From Pseudomonadota bacterium (GTDB lineage: Bacteria > Bdellovibrionota > FAC87 > UBA2466): a stretch of DNA of 20,890 bases. The DNA lies in the NCBI GenBank assembly GCA_043767805.1, contig JAYUGC010000185.1:1-20890 (forward strand). Reading direction: 5' to 3'. Under the pieces are notes generated by a model. That model was not told where the DNA came from and did no database searches. It worked only from the letters and a program-made list of their open reading frames with translations. Numbering within the stretch: position 1 is the stretch's first letter; each line of letters starts with the position of its first letter. The position numbers and the translations under genes are program-made. Positions 1,067-20,890 of this stretch are shown in pieces.

Positions 1067-1076
1067 AGGGGCAGCC

Positions 1077-2063: not shown

Positions 2064-2085
2064 TTTCGATCTAACGGAGGCTAAG

Positions 2086-2442: not shown

Positions 2443-2447
2443 GCGCC

Positions 2448-3275: not shown

Positions 3276-4018
3276 TGCCGGGCTTAGGACATATTGGATG
3301 GAAGATCCTCGGCATGGCGAACCTCGCCCTGGCCGAGAGCCCGTCGTCGCTCTTCCCAGTTCAGATTAACGTCGGAGGCGCCTCGGGCGAACAGACCGCC
3401 ATGGCGCTGAAAATCGTCGCGCTCATGACCATCCTGGCGCTTGCGCCGTCCATCCTCATCATGACGACGTCTTTCGTCCGAATCGTCATCGTGTTCTCGT
3501 TTCTCCGCCAAGCCATCGGCACCCAAGTGCTTCCGCCGAATCAGCTCATCGTGGGACTCTCGCTCTTTCTCACCGCCTTCGTCATGGCCCCCATCGGCAA
3601 AGGCATTTATGAGGAGGCGCTGGGGCCCTATTTGAACAACCAGCTCTCCAGCCGGGAGGCGCTCGCCTATACGGAGACGAGTTTGCGCGGCTTCATGTTC
3701 AAGCAGACCCGCGACAAAGACATCGGTCTCTTCGTGAAGCTCTCCAAGATGGCCAAGCCCGAAAAACGCGCTGACGTTCCCACCTATCTTCTCGTCCCGG
3801 CCTTCATGATTTCCGAGCTGAAGACCGCCTTCCAGATCGGGTTCATGATCTATATCCCGTTTCTGGTCATAGATATGGTGGTCGCCTCCGTGCTCATGGC
3901 CATGGGCATGATGATGCTACCGCCCGTCATCATTTCGCTGCCCTTCAAGCTGATTCTCTTCGTTCTCGTCGATGGATGGGGCCTCATCGTGGGCTCCGTC
4001 GTGAAAAGCTTCGGTTAA
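3272..4018 (+). CDS. fliP: Flagellar export gate protein FliP
   Basis: LAPSILIMTTSFVRI, PPNQ, PAFMISELKTAFQIGF, MGMMMLPP and PFKLILFVLVDGW motifs; ATGA overlap with the fliO stop. Confidence 0.98.
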   Translation: MMPGLGHIGWKILGMANLALAESPSSLFPVQINVGGASGEQTAMALKIVALMTILALAPSILIMTTSFVRIVIVFSFLRQAIGTQVLPPNQLIVGLSLFLTAFVMAPIGKGIYEEALGPYLNNQLSSREALAYTETSLRGFMFKQTRDKDIGLFVKLSKMAKPEKRADVPTYLLVPAFMISELKTAFQIGFMIYIPFLVIDMVVASVLMAMGMMMLPPVIISLPFKLILFVLVDGWGLIVGSVVKSFG

Positions 4019-4057
4019 GCTCTCAGAGCATCTATTCGCTTTCTCGAGGTACTCCCC

Positions 4058-4327
4058 ATGCAAACGGAACATGTCCTGGATATCACCCGTCAGGCGTTGA
4101 AGACCGCCTGCCTGCTCTCCGCCCCGATCCTCATTTTCGGACTCGTGGTCGGCGTCGCGACGAACGTCTTCCAGGCCGTGACCCAGATCAGTGAGACGAC
4201 CCTGGCCGTGGTTCCTAAGATTCTCGCGATGATGCTCGCTTTCGTTCTGTTCTCGCCCTGGATGATCGACATTATTTCCGACTTCACGACCCAGCTCTTC
4301 ACCAGCATCCCCAACGTAATCCGATGA
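4058..4327 (+). CDS. fliQ: Flagellar export gate protein FliQ
   Basis: 89 aa; GLVVG..FQAVTQISETTLAVVPK and PWM motifs. Confidence 0.96.
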   Translation: MQTEHVLDITRQALKTACLLSAPILIFGLVVGVATNVFQAVTQISETTLAVVPKILAMMLAFVLFSPWMIDIISDFTTQLFTSIPNVIR

Positions 4328-4346
4328 ATCCTCGTTTCAAGTCACT

Positions 4347-5132
4347 ATGAGCATATATTTCCCTCAAGACTGGACCGTTCTCCTAAGAATCGTTACGGTA
4401 TTTTTCCGTCTTCTTGGGCTTTTCATCTTCGTTCCCTTTTTCAGCCACCACACCATCCCGAACCGCATGCGGCTGATGCTCGCCATCGCGCTCACCTTCG
4501 CGCTCTTTCCCCTCGTCGAGAAGTACGTCGCGCCTCTGCCACCGGGAGTAGGAGGTTTGGCCCTCGTCGTCTTGAGGGAAAGCGTCATCGGGCTTCTCCT
4601 CGGCTTCACGGCCTATCTCACCTTCGAGTCCATTCATCTCGGCGCCCAGTTCATCGGCTATCAGATGGGCTTTGGCGCGGCGGGCGTGCTCGATCCGTCG
4701 CATTCTAAGGAAATGTCCGTGATGGTGCCCCTACAGGGCTGGCTGGCGCTCATGGTCTTTCTGATGGCCGACATGCACCATCAGATGATCGGCATCTTCG
4801 TCAGAAGCTTCGAGACCACGGCCATCATGCACCACGATTTCGGCACGAGCCTTCCGCTCTTGAATCTCATCGTGGCCAAGGCGGGCGGTCTTTTCCTGCT
4901 CGCCATTCAAATGGCCGCGCCTTTCAGCCTCGTGATTCTCGCGTGCAACGTTCTCATGGGTGTGCTGGCGCGCTTACTTCCCCAGATGAACGTCCTCCTT
5001 TTTAGTTTTCCGGTGACGATCCTGTTTGGTATCGCGGCGCTCTATATAGTCGCCCCAGAGATGCTCGACTTCTTCGAGGATCGTCTGGGCGGGATGAGTG
5101 CCGACATGATGGAAATGCTCAGAGTCCTCTAA
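4347..5132 (+). CDS. fliR: Flagellar export gate protein FliR
   Basis: Polytopic membrane protein with ESVIG, GYQMGF and RLLPQMNVL..FP motifs; between fliQ and flhB. Confidence 0.95.
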   Translation: MSIYFPQDWTVLLRIVTVFFRLLGLFIFVPFFSHHTIPNRMRLMLAIALTFALFPLVEKYVAPLPPGVGGLALVVLRESVIGLLLGFTAYLTFESIHLGAQFIGYQMGFGAAGVLDPSHSKEMSVMVPLQGWLALMVFLMADMHHQMIGIFVRSFETTAIMHHDFGTSLPLLNLIVAKAGGLFLLAIQMAAPFSLVILACNVLMGVLARLLPQMNVLLFSFPVTILFGIAALYIVAPEMLDFFEDRLGGMSADMMEMLRVL

Positions 5133-5135
5133 ACC

Positions 5136-6215
5136 ATGGCGCTATTCGGGGAAAATAACGACGACCGCACGGAAACAGCAAGTGCCTATCGGCGCGAGGA
5201 GTTCCGTAAACAGGGGAAGGTGGCGTTAAGCCGCGAGCTCGTCTCCGTCGCCATGCTGCTTTTGGTCGGCTGCGCGCTCTATTTCTCCGGCGCGCATATC
5301 TTCGAGCAGTTCGGTATCGTCACGAAACAATTCTTTCGTTTCGATAAAGTCGGCGTGTTCGATAAAGCCGATATCGTGGGCTTCACCCAGGTCGTTGTGA
5401 AATCCTGGGCTTGGGCTTGTGCTCCGATTTTCCTCGTCGGCATCCTGACCGCTATTGGCGCGGCCGTCGCGCAAGTGGGCTTTCAAGTGACCTGGGAGCC
5501 GCTCTCTCCGAACTGGGAGCGCATCAATCCGCTCACCGGCATGGGTCGGCTCTTTTCCGGAAAGAGCATCGTCGAGGCCATCAAGGGCATCGTTAAGCTG
5601 ACCGTCGGGGGATGGCTCCTCTGGACCTTCATGAAAGGGCTCGCCCCCATCGCGGGCACCCTGTTCAAGCGCGACGTCGCCGAGGGGCTTCTTCTCTCCA
5701 TTCAGCTTGTCGGGAAAATGTTTTTGTGGCTGGTCGGTGCCTTTTCGGTGCTGGCGGCGATGGACTACGGCTACCAGCGCTGGAATCTCGAAAAAGAGAT
5801 GAAGATGACCAAGCGGGAAGCCAAAGACGAATTCAAGCTGCGTGAAGGCGATCCGCTCATCAAGAGCCGTATCCGCACCCTCCAGCGCCGCATCCGCAAC
5901 CGCCGTATGATGGAAGACGTTCCGAAGGCGGACGTCATCGTAACCAACCCGACTCACTTCGCGGTCGCGCTAAAGTACGACCCAACCGTCATGGCCTCTC
6001 CTCGGGTCGTGGCGAAGGGCGCCGACCTCATGGCGAAACGCATCAGAGAGATCGCGCGCGAGCACCGCGTGCCTATCGTCGAGAACAAGCCGCTCGCGCG
6101 GACGCTTTTCAAGGAAGTCGAAGTCGGCGGCTCGGTTCCCCGGGAACTCTATAAAGCCGTCGCTCAAGTCTTGTCCTACGTCTATCGGCTCAAAGGCCGC
6201 ATGTCCGTAGCCTAA
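5136..6215 (+). CDS. flhB: Flagellar export specificity switch FlhB
   Basis: Autocleavage motif NPTH (VTNPTHFAVAL), plus EGDPLIKSRIR and ENKPLAR. Confidence 0.98.
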   Translation: MALFGENNDDRTETASAYRREEFRKQGKVALSRELVSVAMLLLVGCALYFSGAHIFEQFGIVTKQFFRFDKVGVFDKADIVGFTQVVVKSWAWACAPIFLVGILTAIGAAVAQVGFQVTWEPLSPNWERINPLTGMGRLFSGKSIVEAIKGIVKLTVGGWLLWTFMKGLAPIAGTLFKRDVAEGLLLSIQLVGKMFLWLVGAFSVLAAMDYGYQRWNLEKEMKMTKREAKDEFKLREGDPLIKSRIRTLQRRIRNRRMMEDVPKADVIVTNPTHFAVALKYDPTVMASPRVVAKGADLMAKRIREIAREHRVPIVENKPLARTLFKEVEVGGSVPRELYKAVAQVLSYVYRLKGRMSVA

Positions 6216-6227
6216 TTGGAGTCATAA

Positions 6228-8300
6228 ATGGCCACCGAGACAAAAGGTTTCAGCATAGCCCGGCTCACGAAGCACAGCGACCTGATGGTCGCCTTCGGCG
6301 TGCTGGGTACCTTGCTCGTCATGATTCTGCCGATTCCGGCCTGGCTCATGGACATGCTTTTTGTGCTCAGCATCACCATGAGCATCTCGATTCTCCTCGT
6401 CTCGGTGTACGCCGGCCGTCCTCTCGATTTCTCCGTCTTTCCGACGGTTCTCCTTTTCTCAACGTTATTTCGTCTTTCTCTGAACGTTGCCTCCACGCGC
6501 CTGGTCCTCCTCCATGGCCATGAAGGGACTTCAGCCGCGGGACACGTCATCGAGACATTCGGGAATCTGGTCGTGGGCGGTTCCTACGTCGTAGGGCTCG
6601 TCGTTTTCGTTCTGCTCATCATCATCAACTTCGTCGTCATCACCAAAGGCGCGGGCCGCGTGGCGGAAGTCGCCGCTCGCTTCATCCTGGACTCCATGCC
6701 TGGTAAACAGATGGCGATCGACGCCGATCTGAACGCCGGCCTCATTAATGAGGAAGAAGCCAGAAAGCGCCGCAAGCGGATTGAAGCCGAAGCGGACTTT
6801 TACGGAGCCATGGACGGCGCCAGTAAGTTCGTCCGCGGCGATGCGATCGCGGGCATTCTCATTACGCTCGTCAATATCATTGGCGGCTTTGCGATCGGCC
6901 TTTTTCAAAAGGGCTTGGGTCTAAGTCAGGCCGCGGAAATCTATACGCTCATGACCATCGGCGATGGTCTCGTGACGCAAATTCCTTCGCTCATCGTTTC
7001 GACCGCCGCTGGTATCATCGTGACCCGCGCCGCCTCGGGAGAGGACTTCTCTAAGGAAGTTGCCAAGCAAATCTTCCTCCAACCCCGCGCCATCGGCGTG
7101 ACCTCCGGCATCCTGTTCTTGATTGGCGTCATGCCGGGACTGCCGGGCTTCCCGTTCTTCGCGGCAGCGCTGGTTACAGGAGGGATCTCCTGGGCCGTCT
7201 CGCGGAGCAAGAAGGTGGAAGTTGCGGAGGCCAAGGCCAACGAGATCAAGACCGCCGAAACTTCGGCGCACGAAACCAACGTCCCGCCCGAAGTGGACGC
7301 GCTCGAGCTGCAAGTGGGTTACGGCTTGGTTTCCTTAGTCGAAGGCAGCGGCGACCTGGTCGATCGCATTTACCAGCTACGTAAGGAATTCGCCAAAGAT
7401 CTGGGCATCATCGTTCCCAAAGTCCGCATTCAGGATAACCTCGAGCTCCAGCCCGCTCAGTACTCACTGCTCATCCGTGGCGTTCCCGTGGGGGGAGGCG
7501 AGCTTATGAACGGGTATCTGCTCGCCATGGACTCCGGCAATGTCGAGCGTCCGATCAACGGCGTCGAGACGAAAGAACCGGTCTTCGGGCTGCCCGCCCT
7601 TTGGGTGAGTGAGAAACAGCGCGAGCAGGCGCAGATGGCCGGCTACACCGTGGTGGACTCCTCCACTATTTTGGCCACCCATCTTTCGGAAATCATCCGT
7701 AAGTTCGCTCACGAGCTATTGGGCCGCCAGGAACTGCAAACTCTCGTCGATAACTTGGCGAAAACCCGCCCGAAGGTGGTCGAGGATCTTATCCCGACGG
7801 TGATGCCTTTGGGTACGGTGCTCAAGGTTTGCCAAAATCTCCTTCGAGAGCAGGTGCCCATCCGCGACTTGCTGACCATCATGGAGACGCTCGCGAACCA
7901 CGGCGTCGGCCAAAAGGATCCGGAATCTCTGACCGAGTTCGCGCGGGGCGCGTTGGCCCGCACGATTACCAATCGCCTGACCCTCGGCACCCAGAGCCTC
8001 GAAGTGATCACCATGGCCCCGCGAACGGAAGAAGCGCTCATCCGGGCCTACCAGAGAAACGAGCACGGCCCTCAGCTGAACCTCGAGCCCGGCCACTTCG
8101 AGCGCTTGGTCACCCAAACCCAGAAGCTCATCGAGGGCACGGTGTTCAGCTCCGGTATCCCGGTACTTCTCTGTCACCCGCTCATCCGCAGCCAGCTGCG
8201 GAAATTGGTCGAACGGTTCATTCCGAATTTGACGATAGTTTCGGCGAACGAGATAGCGACGTTCGCCCGTGTGAAATCCCTTGGCAGTGTGGAGGCGTAG
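6228..8300 (+). CDS. flhA: Flagellar export apparatus protein FlhA
   Basis: FHIPEP motifs: RVAEVAARFILDSMPGKQMAIDADL, ADFYGAMDGASKFVRGDAIAG, IGDGLV.QIP. Confidence 0.99.
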   Translation: MATETKGFSIARLTKHSDLMVAFGVLGTLLVMILPIPAWLMDMLFVLSITMSISILLVSVYAGRPLDFSVFPTVLLFSTLFRLSLNVASTRLVLLHGHEGTSAAGHVIETFGNLVVGGSYVVGLVVFVLLIIINFVVITKGAGRVAEVAARFILDSMPGKQMAIDADLNAGLINEEEARKRRKRIEAEADFYGAMDGASKFVRGDAIAGILITLVNIIGGFAIGLFQKGLGLSQAAEIYTLMTIGDGLVTQIPSLIVSTAAGIIVTRAASGEDFSKEVAKQIFLQPRAIGVTSGILFLIGVMPGLPGFPFFAAALVTGGISWAVSRSKKVEVAEAKANEIKTAETSAHETNVPPEVDALELQVGYGLVSLVEGSGDLVDRIYQLRKEFAKDLGIIVPKVRIQDNLELQPAQYSLLIRGVPVGGGELMNGYLLAMDSGNVERPINGVETKEPVFGLPALWVSEKQREQAQMAGYTVVDSSTILATHLSEIIRKFAHELLGRQELQTLVDNLAKTRPKVVEDLIPTVMPLGTVLKVCQNLLREQVPIRDLLTIMETLANHGVGQKDPESLTEFARGALARTITNRLTLGTQSLEVITMAPRTEEALIRAYQRNEHGPQLNLEPGHFERLVTQTQKLIEGTVFSSGIPVLLCHPLIRSQLRKLVERFIPNLTIVSANEIATFARVKSLGSVEA

Positions 8301-8306
8301 TTCATT

Positions 8307-9428
8307 ATGATGGTGAAGCGTTACGAAGCTAGTTCTCTCGAAGAAGCCTTAGCCCAGGTGAAGCGGGACTTAGGCCCCGAAGCCCTCATTTTGTCGACGC
8401 ATCAGAAGCGCCGTACTTGGCTGCGCGCGCCTTTCGTGGAAGTGATGGCCGCGAAGGAGGCGACGCCCGCGCCGACCAAACAGGAAACTCAGCACGATTT
8501 GGACGAAGAAGCGCTCCGCAAGATTTTTCCTCACCGCCGCGGCAAGGAAAAGGAAACGCTCGAAGAAGCCATTGCTTCCAGTCCCGACATTCCGGCGGAA
8601 GAGACCTCCATTCGCCACACCCGGGTCTCGCGCTATAAGGATCTCGATAAGAAATCCAACGAGCTCCCCAAAGAAAGTCCGGGCGAGGCGTACATTGATC
8701 ATCTGACTCGTCTGGGCTTTAGCGATCCGACCGCGAAGGAAATCGCCCGGCGGATGATTTTCGACTATCCGAAGGAGGATAGGGCGGATGCGGCCATGCT
8801 CGCGAAAATCCGCACCCGCATCGCGGCCTCTTCGTTGCAGACGCTGTCTCCCAGCATTTTTGAGGCGCGCACCGTTTGGACCGCCATCGGTGTCGGCGGC
8901 GCTGGAAAGACCGCGAGTCTCGTGAAGCTCGCCATCGGGCTCAAGCGTCAGGGCTCTCACGTCTCTCTTATCGGCTGCGACAAACGCAAAGTCGTGGGCC
9001 AGAGGGAGCTCGCCACCTACGCCCGCTTGATTCAAGCGCCTTACTCGTCGGAGTTTCGCATCGAGCGCGGCCCGAAAAAGGTTCAGCTCATCGATACCCC
9101 CGCGCTGTCTTTCCAGAGCCCCGATCAGAACGCGGAAATCGGCGAAATCTGCCGTGGCACGAGCCCCTTTCTGGTCCTGGATGCGAGCGCACGCCTGAAA
9201 GAATCTTTACGCATCTGGGAAGTGGCGTCTCGCTTTCAGCCCGCCGCCATCGTCTTCACGCGCCTCGATCTCGTGAGCCAACCCGGCGTCATCCACGACG
9301 TTTTGAAGGCGACTCGCCTGCCGCTTCTCGGCGCTTCCGTCGGCGATTCATTCCGTACCCCTTTTCAATGGTATGAGCCCCGGTCCCTTGGGGAATTTCT
9401 CACCAACGCCCCGGGAGGCTCTCTATGA
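8307..9428 (+). CDS. flhF: FlhF-like SRP-family GTPase with degenerate G-motifs
   Basis: N-terminus MVKRYEASSLEEALAQVKRDLGPEALILST is typical of FlhF; P-loop GVGGAGKT; lies between flhA and flhG. Confidence 0.85.
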   Translation: MMVKRYEASSLEEALAQVKRDLGPEALILSTHQKRRTWLRAPFVEVMAAKEATPAPTKQETQHDLDEEALRKIFPHRRGKEKETLEEAIASSPDIPAEETSIRHTRVSRYKDLDKKSNELPKESPGEAYIDHLTRLGFSDPTAKEIARRMIFDYPKEDRADAAMLAKIRTRIAASSLQTLSPSIFEARTVWTAIGVGGAGKTASLVKLAIGLKRQGSHVSLIGCDKRKVVGQRELATYARLIQAPYSSEFRIERGPKKVQLIDTPALSFQSPDQNAEIGEICRGTSPFLVLDASARLKESLRIWEVASRFQPAAIVFTRLDLVSQPGVIHDVLKATRLPLLGASVGDSFRTPFQWYEPRSLGEFLTNAPGGSL

Positions 9429-10237
9429 AGGTCATTTCTTTTTCGAGTGGTAAGGGCGGGGTCGGTAAGACCACGCTCGTCGCGAACCTCGGCATGCTCT
9501 ACGCGAGCATGGGCCGCAAAGTGCTTTTAATCGATGGAGATTGGACCCTCGGTAAGCTCACCATTGCCCTCGGCGTGCGCCCTAAATGGACCGTCGAGCA
9601 AGTTTTGAGCGGCGAGATTTCCATGACCGATGCCATTCATCCGGTGCGGGAGAACTTATCGGTACTCGCGTCTCCGACGGGAGTGGTGGGACTCGAAGAG
9701 CTCGACGAAGCAAAACGCAATCAGCTCTTTTTCGAGATCGAAGGCTTGGGCGAAAACTACGATCTCGTTCTCATCGATCATTCCTCGGGCATAAATTGGG
9801 GCGTGCTGCAGTTTGCTGCCGCGGCGCATAAGCAAGTGATTGTTACGACTCCCGAGCCCACGGCCTATACGGACGCCTATGCTATAATCAAATTACTCCG
9901 CAAACGTTTCAGCATCCGCGATTTCAGTCTCCTGGTGACCTTTAGCGACAACCGGGCGGAGACCGCGGGCATTCTGGATCGGTTTACGGACGTGGTTTAC
10001 GGAAACTTGGACGTTCGGCTTCGGCTCCTCGACATTCTGCCGTGGGAGCCGCGGCTAGCCGAGTGCATCCGTCGCCAGCAGCCTTTTGTCGAACGGTTCC
10101 CTAGCGCCCCGCTAACGGCGCGTTTGAAGCAGGTTTGCGGCAGTCTCGATCGAGCTCCGGTCGCCGAGACGCACGGGCTTCGCTTCTGGTCCAACGGACG
10201 CCCCACGGAAAAATCCTCCGACGTGCCGATAGGCTAG
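9425..10237 (+). CDS. flhG: MinD-like flagellar number regulator FlhG (FleN)
   Basis: Deviant Walker A SGKGGVGKTT; VTTPEPTAYTDAYAIIK motif; between flhF and fliA; ATGA overlap with the flhF stop. Confidence 0.9.
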   Translation: MKVISFSSGKGGVGKTTLVANLGMLYASMGRKVLLIDGDWTLGKLTIALGVRPKWTVEQVLSGEISMTDAIHPVRENLSVLASPTGVVGLEELDEAKRNQLFFEIEGLGENYDLVLIDHSSGINWGVLQFAAAAHKQVIVTTPEPTAYTDAYAIIKLLRKRFSIRDFSLLVTFSDNRAETAGILDRFTDVVYGNLDVRLRLLDILPWEPRLAECIRRQQPFVERFPSAPLTARLKQVCGSLDRAPVAETHGLRFWSNGRPTEKSSDVPIG

Positions 10238-10272
10238 AAGAGCTCGGCTTTCGTTTCTAAACGCTTTAACGA

Positions 10273-10288
10273 CTCTTAAGCTTAAGAG
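10273..10288. promoter_or_regulatory. Perfect 16-bp palindrome overlapping the fliA ribosome-binding region
   Basis: CTCTTAAGCTTAAGAG is its own reverse complement and ends 6 nt before the fliA ATG (10295). Its function is not demonstrated. Confidence 0.45.
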
Positions 10289-10294
10289 AGAGAC

Positions 10295-11080
10295 ATGCCA
10301 ACCACCACCACCCAAAAGAAAAAGTACAAGGATGGGCCCCGAAAGATCGATCGGCGGACCAAGGAAAAGCTCATTCTCGAGTACGCGCCTCTCATCAAGT
10401 TCATCGCCCAAAAGATCGCGGTGCGCTTGCCCTCCAATATCGAGTTCGACGATTTAGTGAGCTCGGGCGTCATCGGCCTGATGGACGCCATCGACAAGTA
10501 CGACCCGACTCGCGACAACAAGTTCAAGACCTACGCTGAGTTTCGTATCCGCGGCGCCATCTTGGACGAGCTGCGCGCGCAGGACTGGGTGCCTCGTTCC
10601 ATCCGTGAAAAGGCCAAGCAGCTGGAGCGCACTCACGTGCGTCTCGAGCAAAAGCTCGGCCGCGTTCCCACGGAAGACGAGGTCATCGATGAGCTGAAGT
10701 GCTCGAAAGACGAGTACTACGATCTGCTCAATCAGGTGAAATCGGTCTCGATTTTGAGCCTGGACGAGGCGGGAAGCTTCAATAGCAGCGATCGCAAGAG
10801 CATTTTGAGCCTCCTAGAGAGCTGCAAGATCCCCAGCCCCATGACGCAGCTCAACTTCAAAGGCGTAAAAGAAGTCGTCACAAAGGCGATAGAAGGGCTT
10901 CCCGAGAAGCAGCGCCTTGTATTAAGTTTGTATTACTACGAGGATCTCAATCTCAAGGAGATTGGGGAAGTCCTCGACGTAACGGAGAGCCGGGTCTCGC
11001 AGCTCCACACTCAAGCCATTCTTTGGCTGAGACGGAAACTGCGATCCCACTTTGAAGGCGATGGCGGACCAAACATGTAA
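10295..11080 (+). CDS. fliA: RNA polymerase sigma-28 factor FliA
   Basis: FKTYAEFRIRGAILDELRAQDWVPRS (region 2) and LYYYEDLNLKEIGEVLDVTESRVSQLH (region 4). Confidence 0.98.
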   Translation: MPTTTTQKKKYKDGPRKIDRRTKEKLILEYAPLIKFIAQKIAVRLPSNIEFDDLVSSGVIGLMDAIDKYDPTRDNKFKTYAEFRIRGAILDELRAQDWVPRSIREKAKQLERTHVRLEQKLGRVPTEDEVIDELKCSKDEYYDLLNQVKSVSILSLDEAGSFNSSDRKSILSLLESCKIPSPMTQLNFKGVKEVVTKAIEGLPEKQRLVLSLYYYEDLNLKEIGEVLDVTESRVSQLHTQAILWLRRKLRSHFEGDGGPNM

Positions 11081-13350: not shown

Positions 13351-14694
13351 TTATCGCGCGCGGCCGGTTTGCGGAAGGATCCGCGAAGCCAGTCGTGTGA
13401 GTCCGGGAGAGCACTGCTTCGTCGCGGCCTCGTTCGGGCCAGCGAAATAGTTCGAGAACGCGGCTCGCCACTCAGGCGTCATCGCGCTCGCGTGGGAGCT
13501 ATCGGCCTTGGCTAGAATCGGTAGAAGCTCTTTTTGTAGACGCGCCACCTTGCCGAACTCCGCGCTCGAGAGACGGCCCGCGAGGCTCGGCAAAAGGACT
13601 TCGCGCCAGAGCCGGGCCGCGAGCTTCGGGCTCACGTTATCCGGAACTTCATTGAAAAGCGCTTTGGCTTCTTCCACGGTCGTCGCCCGGGCGAAACGGT
13701 TCGCCCACCGAATGACTTCGTTTTGAGCGGGAGCCGCGGTTAGCTTCGTGAAGCTCTTCGAAAAATGCTTTCGCAATTCGAGAAGCGTTTTAGCATCCCC
13801 GGACCTCCCGAGATGATTGAGTAGTAGCGCCGCCTTGATCTGCGACGGGATCGACTTGTCTTTACCCAGTGCCGCCACGAGAGGCTCGTTGACATTCTGG
13901 GCTTTGAGCTGCTTTTTCAGCGAGGACCAAGTGAGCCGTTCTTTCGCGAGTCCCAATTTCTGCAAGAGGTGGTCGAAATGCCCGGGATCCGCCGCGACGA
14001 TGGCGCTCTGGATGCCGCCCGCTTCTTTCAAGATCGGAAGCACGAGGTCCGTCCCAAAGCGAACGCCCAGAGCCTCGCGAGCCTTTTGCCGGGCCGCTTT
14101 GATAGCGTCATAGGTCGCGGGATCGGGATACAGGGCTCTCAAGCGTCCTTCCACCGCACGTTGTTGCATCGCATAGATGGTTCCGAAGAGGATCGGCTGA
14201 TAGGGGACCACCACTGAGATGGGAATCAGAAAGGGAAGGCCGACCTGAGCCAGCACCGCGGGAACGACGACGTCCATGGCGGTTCCCAAAACGATGCCCG
14301 CGCCCGCGGCGACGCCGTGCCGGCGCCCCAGGTTCATGGCCGAGCCACCGAGTTTTTTCGCGGAAGCGACCAGGTTTGAAAACGACAGCTTTTGAAGCAA
14401 GGCTTTGGCCCTCTCCTGGAACTTGAGCGGCGTCTTCGCCGGAAACTCAGTCGACAAAATCTTTTCGCTCGTGGCGCGCAAAAGTTTTTCGAGCTCACCA
14501 TCGGTCAGCTCTCCCTTGTCGGCCTGGGAGTCCGCCTGGGTCTCCAATTCCATGAGAATCGACTGCACGCGCGTCGCGATTTCGACTTCGGTGAGTTGCT
14601 CGCGGGTCAGGTACTGGTCTTCGGCCCGTGCTTTGAAGGGAGCCGCGATGGCCGCGAGCAATAGAAGCAGCGTGACGTAGGATTTAACTTTCAT
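13351..14694 (-). CDS. Hypothetical exported/membrane protein, mostly helical
   Basis: 447-aa ORF with a Sec signal (MKVKSYVTLLLLLAAIAAPFKARA|) and an internal long Gly/Ala/Pro-rich hydrophobic segment; GGGGG SD-like sequence upstream. Confidence 0.8.
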   Translation of the reverse strand: MKVKSYVTLLLLLAAIAAPFKARAEDQYLTREQLTEVEIATRVQSILMELETQADSQADKGELTDGELEKLLRATSEKILSTEFPAKTPLKFQERAKALLQKLSFSNLVASAKKLGGSAMNLGRRHGVAAGAGIVLGTAMDVVVPAVLAQVGLPFLIPISVVVPYQPILFGTIYAMQQRAVEGRLRALYPDPATYDAIKAARQKAREALGVRFGTDLVLPILKEAGGIQSAIVAADPGHFDHLLQKLGLAKERLTWSSLKKQLKAQNVNEPLVAALGKDKSIPSQIKAALLLNHLGRSGDAKTLLELRKHFSKSFTKLTAAPAQNEVIRWANRFARATTVEEAKALFNEVPDNVSPKLAARLWREVLLPSLAGRLSSAEFGKVARLQKELLPILAKADSSHASAMTPEWRAAFSNYFAGPNEAATKQCSPGLTRLASRILPQTGRAR

Positions 14695-14744
14695 GGCAGG
14701 CCCCCAGATTCACGGCGTACGCGCCGCTCTCGCCGGAGCCCTAC

Positions 14745-14760
14745 TGCAAGGTTTTGGCCG
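14745..14760 (-). promoter_or_regulatory. Candidate sigma54 promoter for the 447-aa minus-strand gene
   Basis: Minus strand reads CGGCCA-AAACC-TTGCA: the invariant GG-N10-GC spacing and a perfect TTGCA, with an imperfect -24 hexamer; 50 nt upstream of the ATG. Confidence 0.4.
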
Positions 14761-14874
14761 TAGACAGAAAGGCTACATTCAGGCTGGGCTCGTGCCTGTG
14801 GCCTCACGCTCCGACGAATAAGAAAGGAACGATTTGCCGAATTCCGTCCCGTCCCTTGCCAGACCCCATTAATA

Positions 14875-14894
14875 TGATAATGAGTATCATTATT
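14875..14894. promoter_or_regulatory. Fur box (ferric uptake regulator family operator)
   Basis: 14876-14894 GATAATGAGTATCATTATT matches GATAATGATAATCATTATC at 16/19. 14875-14889 TGATAAT-G-AGTATCA matches the 7-1-7 core with one mismatch. It is an AT-rich island in GC-rich DNA, directly before genes of iron-related families. Confidence 0.85.
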
Positions 14895-14895
14895 G

Positions 14896-15555
14896 ATGTC
14901 GTTGCAAAGCAAATGGCGAGTCTTGTGTCTACTACTGCTCTGGGGGGCCGTGGCTTGCGCGGAGGAGCCCCGCCGCCTGGGAGCCAGCTATTTCCTATTC
15001 TTTGATGGCCCGGGTCTCGCGGGAACCGGGGACCAAACGCCCAACGTCTTGGGCTTGCCAGAAGATGACGGCCTATTCGCGAAGTTCGCCTATCAACCCA
15101 GCGGCAGCCGTTGGTCGGTTTTTAGTCTCGTCATGCCGAGGATTTTCTTCTATCGCGATCGCGGCGCGGCCGAGCCCCAGCTCCTGCGCGCGGGCTATAG
15201 CCCCGGCCTGAAGCCGGAGTTCGCGCTCTCCCTTTCGCCCTCTATCAATTACGACCTCGGCCGAAAGTTAGGCCTGCGGTTTGGAACCGAGTTCACCTAC
15301 CGAAAGCTAGTGCTCTCATCGTGGAATCCTTTCGACGGCAGCTTAAATGGATCGGACATCGCCTCTAAGGCGTGGCGTCTGGCTCCGGTTCCCGCCCAAG
15401 TGGGGCTTACTTTCGAGCCCGATGAGAGTCTCAACGTTTCGATCTTCTTTCAGGGGTTTCCGATCGCCGCGCAACGAGTCCGAAAGGACGGGGTGAGAGC
15501 GAGCTTCTCCGAGACGACCTCCGTCGGGATGTGGGTTAGCGGGGCCCTCCTATGA
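14896..15555 (+). CDS. Hypothetical exported beta-rich protein, possibly an outer-membrane barrel
   Basis: Signal peptide (..LLLLWGAVACA|) and multiple amphipathic, aromatic-rich beta-like segments (SINYDL, LGLRFGTEFTY, VGLTFE, VSIFFQG, SVGMWVSGAL); ATGA-coupled to the next gene. Confidence 0.65.
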   Translation: MSLQSKWRVLCLLLLWGAVACAEEPRRLGASYFLFFDGPGLAGTGDQTPNVLGLPEDDGLFAKFAYQPSGSRWSVFSLVMPRIFFYRDRGAAEPQLLRAGYSPGLKPEFALSLSPSINYDLGRKLGLRFGTEFTYRKLVLSSWNPFDGSLNGSDIASKAWRLAPVPAQVGLTFEPDESLNVSIFFQGFPIAAQRVRKDGVRASFSETTSVGMWVSGALL

Positions 15556-16157
15556 TCCGCCGTTGGCATCGGGTGCTCGCGCTTCTCACGGCTTTGCCTT
15601 TTCTGGTGATCGTTGTCACGGGATGCCTTTTGCAGACGAAGCAGTGGCTTTCCTCGCTTCAGCCGAAAAGTCAGAAGAGCCGGGCCGGGCCGCTCTCCCA
15701 ACCCATCGCTTGGGAGGCTTTGCTCAACGCGGTCAGAGGCGGCTCCTCTGCGAAGGACTGGAGCGATCTCGAAGTCGTCGACATCCGGCCGAAACTCGGC
15801 GTCGCCCGCGCCCGAACACGCGACGGCTTTGAAGTGCAGGTGGATCTTGTGACCGGCGAAGTCCTCAGCGCAGCCCCTCGCTACACCTCATGGTTAATCG
15901 AGCTTCATGAAGGAGCGTTTTTCGGGAAGATCGTCCAAAACGGTATTTTCGTTCCGTCCGCCTTCGCGCTGCTCGCGCTTGCCTTCACTGGCTTTTGGCT
16001 TTTAGCCCGTCACTACCTGAAACCTCGGAGAAAAAAAAGATCGCTTCCCCCACGGCTCTTCACGAGTTTCGCTTTGGACTGGAAACGGAGTACATCGTCC
16101 TCGACAAGGCTAAGGGGCAAGCTCTTTGGCACCCTGATTTCAGCTTCGAGAGACTGA
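15552..16157 (+). CDS. Small PepSY-associated TM-helix protein; C-terminal ~40 aa probably not part of the conserved fold
   Basis: RRWHRVLAL...VTGCLL (PepSY_TM helix), PepSY-like EVQVDLVTGEVL, WLIELHEG and ALAFTGFWL. The domain ends at about KPRRKK (16037) but the frame runs on into the next gene. Confidence 0.8.
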   Translation: MIRRWHRVLALLTALPFLVIVVTGCLLQTKQWLSSLQPKSQKSRAGPLSQPIAWEALLNAVRGGSSAKDWSDLEVVDIRPKLGVARARTRDGFEVQVDLVTGEVLSAAPRYTSWLIELHEGAFFGKIVQNGIFVPSAFALLALAFTGFWLLARHYLKPRRKKRSLPPRLFTSFALDWKRSTSSSTRLRGKLFGTLISASRD

Positions 16158-17164
16158 ACGCCATCTTGGAGCGCGTGCCTTTGCACGGTATCCCCAGTCT
16201 CGACGGGCTCGATTTCGAGTTTCCGCATCGCAAGATGATGCCGTTCGTCGTCGAGGGTTATCACTTGCCCGATCAAGATTTTCAAGCGAAAGACCTTCTG
16301 CCTAAAGGGATCGAGATCCGCACGCCGGTTTGCCGCTCCATTGACGAGTGCTTCGACGTGCAACGCCTGCTTCTCTCTCGCCTCACCCAAGAGTGTGGCA
16401 AGGAAGGGTACGGGCTACTCTCGCTGTCTCATCATCCCGATCACCATCATTTTTCTGGGCCGCAGAACAAACGCCGGCATGACTTCTGGCAATGGGCCAT
16501 GGAAGTGATGACGACGTACGGCCCCGACATCAACGTGGGCGTTCCCGACGAAATTTGGATCAAGCTCGATCAGGCGGATCTACTCGCCAAGATCAACTAC
16601 TACGGCCCCGCGCTGACCGCGCTCAGCGTGCGCTCGCCTTTTAGAAACGGCGAGCCCTGGCGCATCCGGGGGAAGGTGGGGAAATCCTTGCGGGTCTTTC
16701 GCCGCAGCGTCGTCGCGCCGCCCATCGAGGTCCACCCGCATGAGAACCGCCGGCTCGAGTTCAAGGTATTCGATATGACGTCTTCTTTCGCGGAGCTAGA
16801 AGGGTATTTTCTCCTCTTTCTGACCTTGCTCCTCGATCCGGCCTTGAAGGGCCGCGCGTCGCAGGCGACTCGCATTTATGATTCGGGCGCCGTCGCGGTC
16901 GAAGGTTTTCAGGCGGATACCGTCGTGGCGCGGCTCGGAGAGATCTTCGATTCCGCCGAGTTGACCCTTCCTAAATGGGGTTTCCCCGCTTGGGGGCTGG
17001 GGCCTCTCATCGAACGGTTTGACACTCGCCGGACTCCGGCCGACGATCTCCTGGATCGTTACCACGAACTAGGAGACTCGATGCCCGCTCTACTTCGCGA
17101 CATGAATCGAGAGCTCGAAATGTCGTGTCGAGAGCCGGCATCTCTTGTTTATGCCAGCGCTTGA
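15995..17164 (+). CDS. Glutamate-cysteine ligase family 2 (GCS2/YbdK-like) carboxylate-amine ligase; start uncertain
   Basis: FGLETEY (ExE metal motif), GIEIRTPV, SHHP, YGPDINVG, ALSVRSPF and RLEFKVFD line up with the GCS2 motif order. No ATG precedes the first motif; candidate starts are TTG 15995 and ATC 16040. Confidence 0.8.
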   Translation: MAFSPSLPETSEKKKIASPTALHEFRFGLETEYIVLDKAKGQALWHPDFSFERLNAILERVPLHGIPSLDGLDFEFPHRKMMPFVVEGYHLPDQDFQAKDLLPKGIEIRTPVCRSIDECFDVQRLLLSRLTQECGKEGYGLLSLSHHPDHHHFSGPQNKRRHDFWQWAMEVMTTYGPDINVGVPDEIWIKLDQADLLAKINYYGPALTALSVRSPFRNGEPWRIRGKVGKSLRVFRRSVVAPPIEVHPHENRRLEFKVFDMTSSFAELEGYFLLFLTLLLDPALKGRASQATRIYDSGAVAVEGFQADTVVARLGEIFDSAELTLPKWGFPAWGLGPLIERFDTRRTPADDLLDRYHELGDSMPALLRDMNRELEMSCREPASLVYASA

Positions 17165-17939
17165 GTGGAGAGACGTCGCCGTCGCTTGGGCTGCCATGGC
17201 GGTGCATCTGGTTGGCTGCGCCCGCCTTGACCGAGCCCTCGCGAAGGGTTGGTTTTGGGCGAGTCTGCGGGCGACGGCTCAGCTTTGCGCGTTAGGCTAC
17301 GTTCTCGCGTTTCTTTTTCGGAAGGACAGCTGGGCATGGACGTCACTCGCCATGCTCGGCATGATGGGCGTCTCCACCTGGACGGTCTTCGATCGCACCG
17401 AAGTGCGATACCCTGGCCTGATACGTGATTGTTTTCTCGCCTTGAGTGCCTCCTTGCTTTTCGGGATGGCTCCGCTCCTCTTCTTGTTTGGCGACTCCGA
17501 GTCGTTGCGAAAGACCGCGGTGGTGCTCCCCTTTCTAGGAATCCTCCTAGGGAATTCCCTCTCCGGCCTTTCCTTGGGGCTCGCGCAGTGGTTGAGAGAG
17601 CTGCGCCAGCGGCAGAACGAAGTGGAATTCTGGATTTCCCTGGGCGCGTCTCCCGCCCAGGGGTCTGCAAAGCTGAACCGCTCTGCGTTTCGGACCGCAA
17701 TGACGCCAATCCTAAATTCACTTGCCGTCGCCGGAGTCGTGAGCCTTCCGGGCATGATGACGGGACAACTGCTTGCGGGAGGAAGCCCGAATCAGGCGGT
17801 GCGGTATCAGTTGGTCGTGCTCTTTTTGATCTCGGGCGTGATTTTCAGCTCTCTTTGGCTGGCACTGCATTTAGGGCTTCGGCGCGCGTTCGATCCGTGG
17901 GGTGCGCTCCAGCTGCTTACAGAGCGTGAAAAAAAATGA
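17151..17939 (+). CDS. fetB: ABC transporter permease, FetB/YbbM (UPF0014, STAR2-like) family
   Basis: RATAQL...GYVL, GILLGNSL, SLGASP and GVVSLPGMMTGQLLAGGSPNQAVRYQ family motifs; ATG 17151 overlaps the ligase 3' end. Confidence 0.9.
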   Translation: MPALEWRDVAVAWAAMAVHLVGCARLDRALAKGWFWASLRATAQLCALGYVLAFLFRKDSWAWTSLAMLGMMGVSTWTVFDRTEVRYPGLIRDCFLALSASLLFGMAPLLFLFGDSESLRKTAVVLPFLGILLGNSLSGLSLGLAQWLRELRQRQNEVEFWISLGASPAQGSAKLNRSAFRTAMTPILNSLAVAGVVSLPGMMTGQLLAGGSPNQAVRYQLVVLFLISGVIFSSLWLALHLGLRRAFDPWGALQLLTEREKK

Positions 17940-18574
17940 CGCCCGCGTTACGTTTTTTCAACCCGCACGCGCGAATACCGGCGTGGACCTGCCTTCCAGG
18001 AGAGCGGTGGGTCTTGGTTGCGCCTACCGGCTGGGGAAAGAGTCAGTGGCTGAGACAACTCACTTTGCTACGAGACGCCTCCGAGTCCCGGGTCGAATGG
18101 AATGGTCGCGTGGTGGAAGCGCGCGACGCCGCCCAATACCGAAAACAATGGATTTTTTTGGCGCAGACTTCCTATCGCTCTTCGGACACGGTCGTGGCCC
18201 ACCTTAAAGAAGTGGCGGGGCTCCGCGGGTTGTCGGACGTCGATGCCTTCGTCTCCCACGTTCGACAGGCTCTCGGAGATCTCGGGCTTGGTGCGCTCGA
18301 TGAAAAGAAGCGAAGCCTACACGAGCTTTCCGGAGGAGAGCTTCAAGTGGTGTCGCTCTTGCGCACCGTGCTGCTTTCACCGGAGGGGATTTTTCTCGAC
18401 GAACCCACCTCCGCCATGGACGGGGCACTCAGACTAAGGACCGAAGCTTGGTTGCTTCAGCACTTCAGTGGACCGTTCCTTTGGGTTAGTCATGATGAGG
18501 AACAGGTTGGCCGCCTGCTTTCCACTGGCGCCCAACTGGTTCATCTTCCCTCTGCGGCGCCCCGCGTCGGATGA
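17936..18574 (+). CDS. ABC transporter ATP-binding subunit, FetA/YbbL-like
   Basis: Walker A APTGWGKS, signature LSGGE, Walker B IFLDEPTS, H-loop WVSHD; 212 aa; ATGA-coupled to the permease. Confidence 0.88.
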   Translation: MTPALRFFNPHARIPAWTCLPGERWVLVAPTGWGKSQWLRQLTLLRDASESRVEWNGRVVEARDAAQYRKQWIFLAQTSYRSSDTVVAHLKEVAGLRGLSDVDAFVSHVRQALGDLGLGALDEKKRSLHELSGGELQVVSLLRTVLLSPEGIFLDEPTSAMDGALRLRTEAWLLQHFSGPFLWVSHDEEQVGRLLSTGAQLVHLPSAAPRVG

Positions 18575-18616
18575 CGGGCCCAACTAAGACCTCGACGATA
18601 AAACCGCCGAACAGGG

Positions 18617-18625
18617 TGCTATAAT
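18617..18625 (+). promoter_or_regulatory. Extended -10 sigma70-type promoter for the prepilin cluster
   Basis: TG-C-TATAAT is a perfect TGnTATAAT in the 60-nt intergenic gap, 9 nt before ATG 18635. Confidence 0.65.
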
Positions 18626-18634
18626 CGACCCACG

Positions 18635-19117
18635 ATGAAGCCTGCGTTCGATAATCGGGGAGCGGGTCTGCTGCTTTTGGTTCTCATCTTATTGGGCCTT
18701 GGCCTGACGGCCGGGGTGGTGTCCGTGAGTATGCGACTGGCAATCGACGAACGCGCGACGGCCGAGACTCAAGTCAAGATGCGAGCCTTAGCTGAAGCTA
18801 TCTCCTCAACCAACTATATATCTGGGGCGCAGAAGGTCCGCCACTTTGAACAGGACGCGGGTCTACTTCCTTCTACGTTAAACGAGCTACTGAGTCGTCC
18901 GATCGCCATCGGGACGTGTTACATGACCACCGCAGCCCAGAATTTGGCTGGGTGGTGCGGCCCCTATTGGAGTTCGCAGTTCTCCGGAGAAGATCCCTTT
19001 TCGGATGGTTGGAACAATACGTTGATTCTGAGCACGGCCTCTCGTCACATTCGAAGTAAGGGGCCCAATGGCGTGGATAATAGCGGGGGTGGCGATGACA
19101 TCGTCCAAACCTACTAG
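18635..19117 (+). CDS. Prepilin-like protein with a GspG-like globular domain, lacking Glu+5
   Basis: MKPAFDNRG|AGLLLLVLILL leader plus hydrophobic helix; GWCGPY, DPFSDGW and IRSKGPNG...GGGDDI resemble the T2SS GspG C-terminal domain. Confidence 0.75.
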   Translation: MKPAFDNRGAGLLLLVLILLGLGLTAGVVSVSMRLAIDERATAETQVKMRALAEAISSTNYISGAQKVRHFEQDAGLLPSTLNELLSRPIAIGTCYMTTAAQNLAGWCGPYWSSQFSGEDPFSDGWNNTLILSTASRHIRSKGPNGVDNSGGGDDIVQTY

Positions 19118-20234
19118 GTTTCCTTCCGGCTGGACGCTCATCGAACTGATCGGGGTAATGCTGATAGTCGCCATTTTGGTAAAATTCGCGCGCGATTCTT
19201 TCGATAGTCAGCTGTCCGGTTCCAAATCCGAGATGACTCAGCAGCGTCTCGAGGCGATTAGAACTGGGATTCTGGGAGCAGACCTTTCCCAAACCACCGA
19301 GGGAGTGCGAGCGAACTTCGGCTTTATCGGCGATATTGGCCGCCTTCCCACGAGTTTGGGCGAGTTGTCCTCGCAAGGAGGTCTGCCTGCCTGGATCTAT
19401 TCGACCTCGTATGGCATTGGGGTAGGTTGGCGCGGCCCCTACGTCAGCGGGGGAGATTCGCTTTCTCTTTCGATTCAAAAAGATGGTTGGGGGCGGGCTA
19501 TTGTGTACTCGACGACTCTGCCCCAACCATTTCTCTCGAGTCTGGGTGCAGACGGTGCCGCTGGCGGTGCCGCCGCTAATACCGACCTGGTAGTTGAGAT
19601 GGCGACTTCACTTTGGCAAAGCCGTTTGTCGGGAAATCTTCGCGAAGGGGATGGGCTCGTATCTGGGGCGGTCGTAGCTCTGGATTACCCGGTAGCGGGA
19701 AGCCTTGCCTCAGTTCTTACTACTTCCGACTCCAATGGTTTTTTTCAATTTAATAGCATTCCCTTCGGAGTCCGTTCCCTCCGCGTGGTGTCTCCCACAG
19801 CATACGGTCCCGTTCCCATCGTCGTGCAGAGGGGAGAGATTCAAGTGCCCGATTCGGCGCTAAACTATCGCGGCGGATCTGAGTCGGTCGCCTACCAAGC
19901 CGGTTCGGTGAAGAACTATAATTCGGGCCTCTCGATTTTAGCCCACCTATCCAGCTCCTATAGCTTTCCGGTCCAGCTTGCCTCGATAAAAGTCACCTGG
20001 GTTGGCGGTGGAACGTTTTCGGCAGTGGCGTTGGACGGTATTTCTGAAACATTCTCTTCCGCAGTTTCTTCGGCCACGGACAAGGCAATCGGGGGCACCA
20101 TGATTTTGCCGGCAAAATCATCGGACAACAGTCTAGAGATCACTTTCAGCGGGGACATGACGGGCAAGCTCATTACGATCGTGCTTTCGTGGCTCAACCG
20201 AACTCGCACGGATACGGTGGCTTTCACTCCATGA
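19095..20234 (+). CDS. Large prepilin: GspG-like domain plus C-terminal beta-sandwich-like domains
   Basis: From ATG 19095: MTSSKPTRFPSG|WTLIELIGVMLIVAIL; GDIGRLP, GWRGPY, DGWGR, SLGADGAAGG..TDL; then LSGNL...TTSDSNGFFQFNSIPFGVRSLRV, which resembles a carboxypeptidase-regulatory-like fold. Confidence 0.8.
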   Translation: MTSSKPTRFPSGWTLIELIGVMLIVAILVKFARDSFDSQLSGSKSEMTQQRLEAIRTGILGADLSQTTEGVRANFGFIGDIGRLPTSLGELSSQGGLPAWIYSTSYGIGVGWRGPYVSGGDSLSLSIQKDGWGRAIVYSTTLPQPFLSSLGADGAAGGAAANTDLVVEMATSLWQSRLSGNLREGDGLVSGAVVALDYPVAGSLASVLTTSDSNGFFQFNSIPFGVRSLRVVSPTAYGPVPIVVQRGEIQVPDSALNYRGGSESVAYQAGSVKNYNSGLSILAHLSSSYSFPVQLASIKVTWVGGGTFSAVALDGISETFSSAVSSATDKAIGGTMILPAKSSDNSLEITFSGDMTGKLITIVLSWLNRTRTDTVAFTP

Positions 20235-20890
20235 AACGGCAAGTCGCGCAAAAAGGCTTTACGTTATTGGAGCTAGTCGTGGTGATAGTTTTAATGGCTA
20301 TCGTCTCAACGATGACCATGTCTTTCTTTACCGGAAGGTCCGACTTCGAACGTTGGGAGGAAACCCGGGCCAAGATGGAAGCCATTCGGGTGGGACTTTT
20401 GGGAGACAACTTGGGAGAAGCCGGGTTCGAGAGGAGCCGCTTCGGATATTTCGGCGACATGGGCCGAATGCCGACAAATTTTACCCTGCTTACCGCGGCA
20501 GAAACGCCTGTTTGGGTCTATCAAGGATCGAATGGGGTGGGGGCTGGTTGGAGAGGGCCCTACTTCAATAATAGATTTACCGGCTCTTATGCGATGGAAC
20601 TCGACGGATGGGGCCGGGCTTTTGTTTACTCAACCACTTCCTTGACGAGCTATGGATCGGACGGCGTGGCTGGAGGGGTGGCTCACGCCACCGATATTCT
20701 CATCTCGTTTCCCGGCGCGGAGAGGCTGGGTTCGGTGCAGGGACGACTTACCGATCGGGGGGAGCCGCTTGCGACGATTCCGGTGATATTGAAATACGCG
20801 TCTAATGGCTCGCTCATCGCTTCCACTTCTTTGACGGCTGCGGATGGAACTTTCAGTTTCTCCACCGTTCCCTATGGGGTGCGGGCTCTC
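20231..20890 (+). CDS. Large prepilin, paralog of the preceding gene; runs off the window (partial)
   Basis: Not in the ORF track; translated by hand. MKRQVAQKG|FTLLELVVVIVLMAIV...GYFGDMGRMP...GWRGPY...DGWGRAFVY...SYGSDGVAGG...TDI...VQGRL...TAADGTFSFSTVPYGVRAL. 220 codons with no stop; ATGA overlap with the upstream stop. Confidence 0.88.
   Translation, partial: MKRQVAQKGFTLLELVVVIVLMAIVSTMTMSFFTGRSDFERWEETRAKMEAIRVGLLGDNLGEAGFERSRFGYFGDMGRMPTNFTLLTAAETPVWVYQGSNGVGAGWRGPYFNNRFTGSYAMELDGWGRAFVYSTTSLTSYGSDGVAGGVAHATDILISFPGAERLGSVQGRLTDRGEPLATIPVILKYASNGSLIASTSLTAADGTFSFSTVPYGVRAL

Follow-up and report, generated by a model that had tools for sequence, protein, structure and literature searches.

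A Fur-boxed operon coupling a divergent GCS2-fold ligase to a FetAB-type ABC transporter in a genome of the Bdellovibrionota

The contig JAYUGC010000185.1 of the assembly GCA_043767805.1 (contig C185 in our numbering) is 20,890 nucleotides long and is referred to here, at its full length, as the window. Between positions 14875 and 18574 it carries five same-strand open reading frames (ORFs) that read as one operon behind a Fur box, and the centre of this operon is a divergent carboxylate-amine ligase of the GCS2/YbdK fold followed by a FetAB-type ABC transporter. The linkage of ligase and FetA/B genes spans Bdellovibrionota, Planctomycetota, Bradyrhizobium, and Methylococcaceae, and Fur boxes recur at the head of some of these gene strings. 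The reading that we follow is that of an iron-starvation module, a Fur-repressed operon whose ligase would make a small amide compound and whose FetAB would export it; we find this plausible, though we stop short of calling it probable. The genome comprises 4,521,288 bases in 204 contigs with 57.9% G+C, and a quick tree of the ligase, together with the lineages of its relatives, grouped the organism among the Bdellovibrionota.

A first-pass annotation made from the letters alone had described five overlapping ORFs as a single unit, and the measured overlaps bear this out, being in order 4 nt, 163 nt, 20 or 14 nt, and 4 nt. The second value assumes TTG at 15995, the only canonical start of the ligase, and the third is 20 nt if the permease begins at 17145 and 14 nt if it begins at the ATG at 17151. 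A consensus scan of positions 14600-18800 found no sigma-70-type promoter on the plus strand, and terminator-like signals in the same interval were not in excess (8 against 5.5 ± 2.4 in shuffles). Because the junctions overlap, internal plus-strand promoters were not seen, and terminator signals do not rise above those of shuffles, we read the five genes as one operon. The Pfam search of the five proteins returned no family of TonB receptors, binding proteins, nonribosomal peptide synthetases (NRPS), or NRPS-independent siderophore (NIS) synthetases, and no match to IucA/IucC or NRPS domains at E ≤ 0.01. This agrees with the earlier statement that none of these is encoded in the unit; for the periplasmic binding protein the statement is true of the window, whereas in one family of relatives the first gene encodes a solute-binding protein.

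Directly before the first start codon lies the palindromic Fur box GATAATGAGTATCATTATT (14876..14894, no strand assigned), which ends one base before the ATG at 14896. It was scored against a 19-mer consensus of the E. coli type, which may miss lineage variants, and agrees with it at 16 of 19 positions on the plus strand, as first annotated, and at 17 of 19 on the minus strand; in 100 dinucleotide-preserving shuffles of the window no such match arose (0/100). Genome-wide there are five sites with four or fewer mismatches, the window box being one of three with two mismatches, and there is one Fur-family gene. Another of the three best boxes, on contig C14 of the same genome (G000; C14:1189, or 1189-1207 of locus L082), has the same core, GATAATGAGTATCA, and stands upstream of an open frame whose C-terminal part is a long-chain flavodoxin (TIGR01752, 192 bits). 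Flavodoxins are classically made at low iron, and since this sister site precedes one, the motif most likely marks the iron-starvation regulon of the organism. With a box at the promoter, a Fur gene in the genome, and a sister site at a low-iron gene, the operon has what would be expected of a member of the Fur regulon. Fur normally represses, so a box at a promoter or start implies expression at low iron. As a side observation, the flavodoxin accounts for the last ~165 residues of the C14 open frame, while its N-terminal 250 residues have no family match, and the frame perhaps represents two genes.

The ligase (15995..17164, plus strand, start uncertain) had been annotated as a GCS2-type enzyme, and this identity stands. 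It reaches 44.2 bits against PF04107 (GCS2; cut-off 21), over profile positions 39-167 of 291 only, and lies under every NCBIfam cut-off (TIGR02050, 39.4 against 176.4; NF010039, 37 against 371; NF010043, 33.2 against 409). Its AlphaFold2 (AF2) model (pLDDT 92.8) gives structural Z-scores of 28.6 to 2gwc, 28.3 to 1tt4, and 27.7 to 1r8g, compared with 18-23 for PafA/Dop and ~14 for glutamine synthetases, and superposes on 2gwc at 3.3 Å root-mean-square deviation over 313 residues. In the model, therefore, the fold of glutamate-cysteine ligase (GCL) and YbdK is present over nearly the full length. Identity to the YbdK and plant GCL structures is 15-16%; a profile search of PDB sequences gave a best E of 0.004, to plant GCL, and the only matches in the ESM Atlas were generic "glutamate-cysteine ligase family" clusters. 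The likeness to YbdK and plant GCL thus consists in a common fold and a Pfam score over the gathering threshold, whereas the low identity, the NCBIfam scores below cut-off, the tight conservation, and motifs of its own set the cluster family apart.

Among 8000 candidates scored, 848 were homologs of the ligase at E ≤ 1e-5. The 119 homologs listed (the 327-aa call of the window aside) are stand-alone proteins of 350-406 aa, and their identity to the window ligase is mostly 50-57%, even across phyla. Residues E30, E32, E87, E107, R109, H146, H147, R161, E245, E255, K257, and others are invariant across 120 ligase sequences; the window ligase keeps all of the family-invariant residues and is 80% identical to the homolog P0002. 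The acidic, His, and Arg positions in this set may include those that bind metal and ATP. A relative 95-99% identical to the window ligase was also noticed in sequencing run X4. The genome has a second, plant-type GCL-like gene on contig C11 (TIGR01436, 272 bits), and when the two proteins were compared by hhalign only 65 C-terminal columns could be aligned. Because a better plant-type GCL match exists elsewhere and the NCBIfam cut-offs are missed, the cluster enzyme is, to judge from its sequence, not the housekeeping Glu-Cys ligase; an ordinary gamma-Glu-Cys synthetase at this place, which the first-pass annotation had named as telling against its own interpretation, was not what we found.

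The transporter genes follow without a gap. The FetB-type (UPF0014) permease (17145..17939, ATG at 17151, plus strand) matches PF03649 at 205.2 bits over positions 1-242 of 242 and is the sole UPF0014 gene of the genome; against the FetB model TIGR00245 it scores 101.4 bits, short of the cut-off of 410. The FetA-type ATPase (17936..18574, plus strand) matches PF00005 at 61.7 bits over ABC_tran profile positions 6-137 of 137, and its best NCBIfam match is FetA (NF007601) at 69 bits, again short of the cut-off (292). Walker A/B and signature motifs seem intact when the translation is inspected by eye. A UPF0014 permease and an adjacent ATPase overlapping by 4 nt are what had been annotated as a FetAB-type ABC transporter. 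With E. coli FetAB (YbbL/YbbM) the pair shares the whole UPF0014 profile, an ATPase nearest FetA, and an adjacent, translationally coupled arrangement; it differs in being far under the equivalog cut-offs, coupled to a ligase, and placed behind a Fur box, and we know of no ligase beside E. coli fetAB. FetAB was reportedly named an iron exporter in E. coli by Nicolaou and colleagues in 2013. For the window pair, the predicted low-iron regulation would argue against plain iron efflux.

The linkage between ligase and transporter was followed in a pattern scan of species-representative genomes, which yielded 80 ligase loci; these were searched with the window proteins by tblastn and sorted by hand into lineage-type groups (21 Bdellovibrio-type, 21 Bacteriovoracales-type, 8 other "delta", 17 Planctomycetota, 7 Bradyrhizobium/Xanthobacteraceae, 2 Methylococcaceae, and 4 others). 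In 51 of the 80 loci a FetA/B gene is found no more than 3 kb from the ligase, and in 54 no more than 7 kb away; if the count is confined to loci whose flanks each reach 3 kb or more, it is found within 3 kb in 29 of 48. Gene order varies with lineage: the window and the Bacteriovoracaceae have ligase-FetB-FetA, Planctomycetota and Methylococcaceae have ligase-FetA-FetB, Bdellovibrio has FetB and FetA fused, and in Bradyrhizobium FetBA is convergent. Since the linkage survives such rearrangement, it argues for a functional tie between ligase and FetAB. The PepSY_TM gene lies directly upstream of the ligase, within 300 nt, in 42 of 80 loci (Bdellovibrio-type 20/21, Bacteriovoracales-type 19/21, other "delta" 3/8, elsewhere none), and the family of ORF1 in just four (L001, L047, L051, L069). 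The neighbourhood check proposed with the first-pass annotation thus came out in favour of the transporter and PepSY_TM and against the barrel as a regular partner. In an evenly drawn phylum sample of 301 genomes, whose members are relatives and not independent, so that co-occurrence is descriptive, the ligase occurs in 17 genomes, UPF0014 in 19, and both in 11, where about one would be expected were the two independent; in 8 of these 11 the two lie within 2.1 kb.

What most suggests that a small molecule is assembled by the module is that relatives add a second dedicated ligase in three unrelated forms, as emerged when ORFs within 6 kb of the ligase were clustered all against all and examples were searched against Pfam and NCBIfam. 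Twelve Bdellovibrio-type loci have a MurF-like ligase directly after the ligase (e.g., L003 8087-9397 and L013 8056-9366), between it and the fused FetB-FetA. The cluster copy scores 263.3 and 255.8 bits against TIGR01143 (cut-off 288.6) in the two genomes checked, and because each of these also has a true murF (372.5 and 371.2 bits), the copy is regarded as a paralog. The other forms are a tandem second copy of the GCS2 ligase (L057, L068, L070) and a DUF3182 protein in six Bradyrhizobium-type loci; all three would, from their sequences, be amide-bond ligases dedicated to the cluster. Further recurrent neighbours are a ~305-aa protein of unknown kind (8 loci) and a solute-binding protein (6 loci).

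Fur boxes, too, recur among these relatives, in one part of the family only. Sites with four or fewer mismatches occur in 8 of the 80 ligase loci, and in six of them the box heads the string of genes that includes PepSY_TM and the ligase (L016, L027, L057, L067, L070, L071); in L016 the solute-binding protein is the first gene behind it. When all untruncated operon starts were scored from -200 to +100, 6 of 61 had such a box, compared with 0.34% of 12,200 control windows, that is, random 300-nt windows from the same loci. The first-pass check for upstream Fur boxes in other genomes thus came out positive against the controls, but most starts lack a box of the E. coli type. In L001, the closest relative, a palindrome TTGAGAACCATTCTCAA (2221-2237) was noticed 55 nt upstream of the ORF1 homolog; possibly this is a Fur box in a lineage-specific form that the E. 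coli-type consensus does not catch.

Between ORF1 and the ligase lies the short PepSY_TM protein (15552..16157, plus strand), with a core of ~155 aa and an unconserved 45-aa tail. Its annotated identity was borne out by a match to PF03929 (48.5 bits, cut-off 28.8) over profile positions 1-163 of 295. Across 46 aligned PepSY_TM proteins H6, P16, G24, Q37, H119, G121, and G147 are invariant, and the two histidines lie within or beside both hydrophobic segments. Published accounts describe FoxB as a protein of 382 residues that has two PepSY domains, four transmembrane (TM) helices, and a pair of b-haems bound through conserved histidines, FoxB-type members as reducing ferrisiderophores through haem, and another PepSY_TM protein, CrpH, as supporting haem-copper oxidase function under copper starvation. 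The window protein resembles FoxB/FpvG and CrpH in its PF03929 score over the cut-off, its invariant histidines, which may be haem ligands, and the predicted iron-type regulation of its gene; in contrast to FoxB/FpvG, it has a ~155-residue core covering the first half of the profile, does not match the architecture of four TM helices and two PepSY domains, and has no TonB receptor in its unit. Because it is half the size of FoxB, a role as a ferrisiderophore-type reductase is only an analogy, although a dimer of the short protein could rebuild the FoxB arrangement.

Put together, the iron-starvation reading would run as follows. At iron scarcity Fur repression would be lifted and the operon switched on. 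The conserved core, an ATP-dependent carboxylate-amine ligase and a FetAB-type exporter, would then make a small amide-linked compound in the cytoplasm, which in relatives a second dedicated ligase would extend, and carry it to the periplasm or beyond, where it would bind or reduce iron. By analogy with FoxB, the half-size PepSY_TM protein with its two invariant histidines could carry haem and, as a dimer, pass electrons in the membrane; this membrane haem protein would supply or remove electrons in the periplasm. The porin-family barrel is an occasional add-on. The iron-handling interpretation of the first-pass annotation is in this form retained for the synteny of ligase and FetAB, the recurrence of Fur boxes, and the separation from GCL, and given up for the barrel, which is rarely part of the unit and is internally deleted here; the gamma-glutamyl chelator or thiol proposed there as the product stays conjectural.

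Several observations weigh against this interpretation. Beyond the six boxed starts, 3 of the 61 have five mismatches and 52 have six or more, and the six include no Bacteriovoracaceae-type, Planctomycetota, or Bradyrhizobium locus; in the Bradyrhizobium-type loci (L044, L063-L066, L073, L080) the Irr ICE motif, with up to three mismatches allowed, gave no match either. FetA/B is missing from within 3 kb in 19 of the 48 full-flank loci, and UPF0014 from 6 of the 17 ligase genomes of the phylum sample. PepSY_TM proteins are not iron-specific and, to judge from CrpH, also serve copper, and the phenotypes of E. coli FetAB would fit detoxification better than acquisition. In the window itself, no ATG, GTG, or TTG marks the conserved start position of the ligase, ORF1 has lost a stretch that carries most of the near-invariant residues of its family, including the most conserved loop, and the local copy of the operon may therefore be impaired or eroding.

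This last point deserves a fuller account, as it bears on the explanation that the operon is a decaying remnant in this genome, with a crippled barrel and a ligase that is poorly or not translated, while the family functions elsewhere. ORF1 (14896..15555, plus strand) begins with a stretch resembling a signal peptide and matched nothing in Pfam or NCBIfam. Of its 51 homologs 47 are 305-364 aa long, whereas the window copy has 219 aa. P0122, the closest full-length homolog, is modelled by AF2 (pLDDT 92) as a barrel of ~12 strands, for which Foldseek returned OmpF1, OmpG, FapF, and NanC at probability 1.0, with TM-scores of just 0.4-0.6. The putative outer-membrane barrel of the first-pass annotation is hence supported for the family, which is a porin-like barrel in the model, but less so for the window copy, which lacks 94 residues of P0122 (60-153) and with them its strands 62-72, 77-88, 101-116, and 120-129; a channel function of this copy is doubtful. 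The junction, near 15075/15076, is in frame, and two more samples from the same study yielded contigs that span it without differences, which indicates that the deletion is real in the population. The residues "GL" at both ends of the missing segment suggest that the deletion arose by microhomology.

The junction between the PepSY_TM and ligase genes (16027..16042, plus strand, as read from the sequence) is the second unusual place. It consists of GGAG (16027-16030), an A8 run (16031-16038), and ATC (16040-16042), where L001 has GGGAG and then ATG. Of the canonical in-frame starts, just one, the TTG at 15995, 163 nt within the PepSY ORF, retains the conserved N-terminal strand FRFGLETEY. Read in the PepSY frame, A_AAA_AAA (16031-16037) has the form of a classic -1 slippery heptamer and would shift ribosomes into the ligase frame. 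A full-length ligase could be obtained from TTG 15995, from a start at ATC, or by a -1 slip. A fusion of the two proteins hidden by a sequencing error in the A8 run was considered and rejected; the listed homologs stand alone, and contigs from sequencing runs X2 and X3 show the same eight A residues with no indel. A search for fused PepSY-ligase proteins of at least 682 aa gave no match, which is weak evidence. At 15928-16004 both X2 and X3 also contain a second contig with 9 single-base differences and loose ends, from which we conclude that a co-occurring strain variant exists.

On the side of decay, then, are the ORF1 deletion, unshared by 47 of 51 homologs, the ATC where L001 has ATG behind an SD-like GGAG (SD, Shine-Dalgarno), and a PepSY ORF running 45 codons beyond the end near residue 157 at which its homologs stop; the deletion and the want of a canonical ligase start at the conserved position are what lead us to say that the local copy may be impaired. 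The module is also patchy, being present in 17 of 301 genomes and 14 of 169 genera of the phylum sample, and was not found in G171, a same-genus genome that is 93% complete. Against decay, the reading frames of ligase, FetB, and FetA are unbroken, the ligase residues that never vary in the family are kept, the ATPase covers its profile to the last position with motifs seemingly whole, the Fur box is among the best of the genome, the same sequence occurs in three samples, and each of the three routes named above could yield a full-length ligase. We therefore regard a remnant as rather unlikely.

Other explanations accept a working operon and assign it a different task. FetAB might expel metal ions in a defence against metal or oxidative stress, with the ligase making a thiol such as gamma-Glu-Cys. 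E. coli FetAB is known only through overexpression phenotypes read as metal export, and overexpression of fetAB improves survival on nickel; a chromate-transporter-family gene adjoins the ligase in seven Planctomycetota-type loci, and the modelled ligase fold is nearest the Glu-Cys ligases. A Fur box over the promoter or start implies expression at low and not at high iron, however, the genome already has a plant-type GCL candidate while the cluster enzyme stays under the GCL equivalog cut-offs, and the second ligases of relatives would be unnecessary for gamma-Glu-Cys, and on these grounds we hold a defence role to be improbable. The ligases might instead build a peptide-type or nucleotide-linked precursor of an envelope component or cofactor that UPF0014 exports, with iron control being secondary. 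Plant UPF0014 transporters, STAR1/STAR2, have been reported as UDP-glucose exporters, and the MurF-like paralog of the Bdellovibrio-type loci would suit such a product. So would a di-haem protein resembling MauG and MbnH (~700 aa, about twice the usual size) that is found directly before PepSY_TM in 15 Bacteriovoracaceae-type loci (e.g., L025 4396-6534); together with PepSY_TM, di-haem enzymes of this kind might mature a redox cofactor or envelope component in the periplasm. A MurF-like gene and a di-haem gene are both missing from the window, and the recurrence of Fur boxes and the predicted co-regulation with flavodoxin point to iron as the primary signal, so that precursor export appears distinctly improbable, and periplasmic maturation as its later step no less so. 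The same di-haem neighbour matches the MbnH model of methanobactin-type systems (TIGR04039, 122.8 bits, below the cut-off) and, like the role of CrpH under copper starvation, might speak for copper or another metal in place of iron. The box fits the iron-Fur consensus, the Fur-family gene is single, and the best sister site precedes flavodoxin, and we consider another metal very improbable.

As to the surroundings of the operon, a divergent gene (13351-14694, minus strand) across a 201-nt intergenic region encodes a 447-aa secreted protein of no known family, for which none of the 80 related loci gave a counterpart. The sole sigma-70-like match in this region (14874-14902) is on the minus strand, on top of the Fur box, and because of this overlap the divergent gene may be co-regulated by Fur. 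Translations inspected by eye place a flagellar export and regulation cluster at 500-11080 (FliM/N/P/R-, FlhB-, FlhA-, FlhF-, FlhG-, and FliA-like) followed by an XerD-like recombinase, and pseudopilin-like genes with N-terminal hydrophobic segments at 18635-20890, to the right of the operon, one of which has a weak T2SSG match (E 0.003). Canonical iron-uptake systems beside the operon are few in this genome: it has one TonB-dependent receptor match only, and the search for FeoB gave weak matches at the level of a GTPase (≤42.8 bits) and none that was clear.

No description of a GCS2-FetAB or PepSY_TM-GCS2 cluster was found in the titles and abstracts of the open-access literature searched, in line with the first-pass view that the combination is undescribed, and the operon appears to be a cluster for biosynthesis and export under Fur control, whose enzyme and transporter families had not been connected before. 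Like NIS and NRPS siderophore clusters it would be a Fur-repressed operon that joins ATP-dependent amide ligases to an exporter; unlike them it employs GCS2, MurF-like, and DUF3182 ligases and has no cognate TonB receptor. A stronger proposal, that a metallophore or periplasmic reductant is made here in a new way, independent of NRPS and NIS enzymes, built by GCS2-fold and MurF-like or DUF3182 enzymes and exported by UPF0014, is one that we would at present call somewhat unlikely.

UPF0014 transporters such as FetAB and STAR1/STAR2 are widespread and their true substrate is unsettled, and a conserved ligase partner offers a concrete handle on it, the more so as this partner is tightly conserved over four phyla or more, often has a second dedicated ligase beside it, and stands repeatedly behind Fur boxes. 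If the product does bind or reduce iron, predatory Bdellovibrionota, Planctomycetota, and soil Bradyrhizobium would have a siderophore-like pathway whose enzyme families have until now had no connection with metallophores, and the half-size class of PepSY_TM proteins would gain a role. If the new route is real, the FetAB/STAR family, E. coli FetAB included, would move small organic metal-handling molecules and not bare iron.

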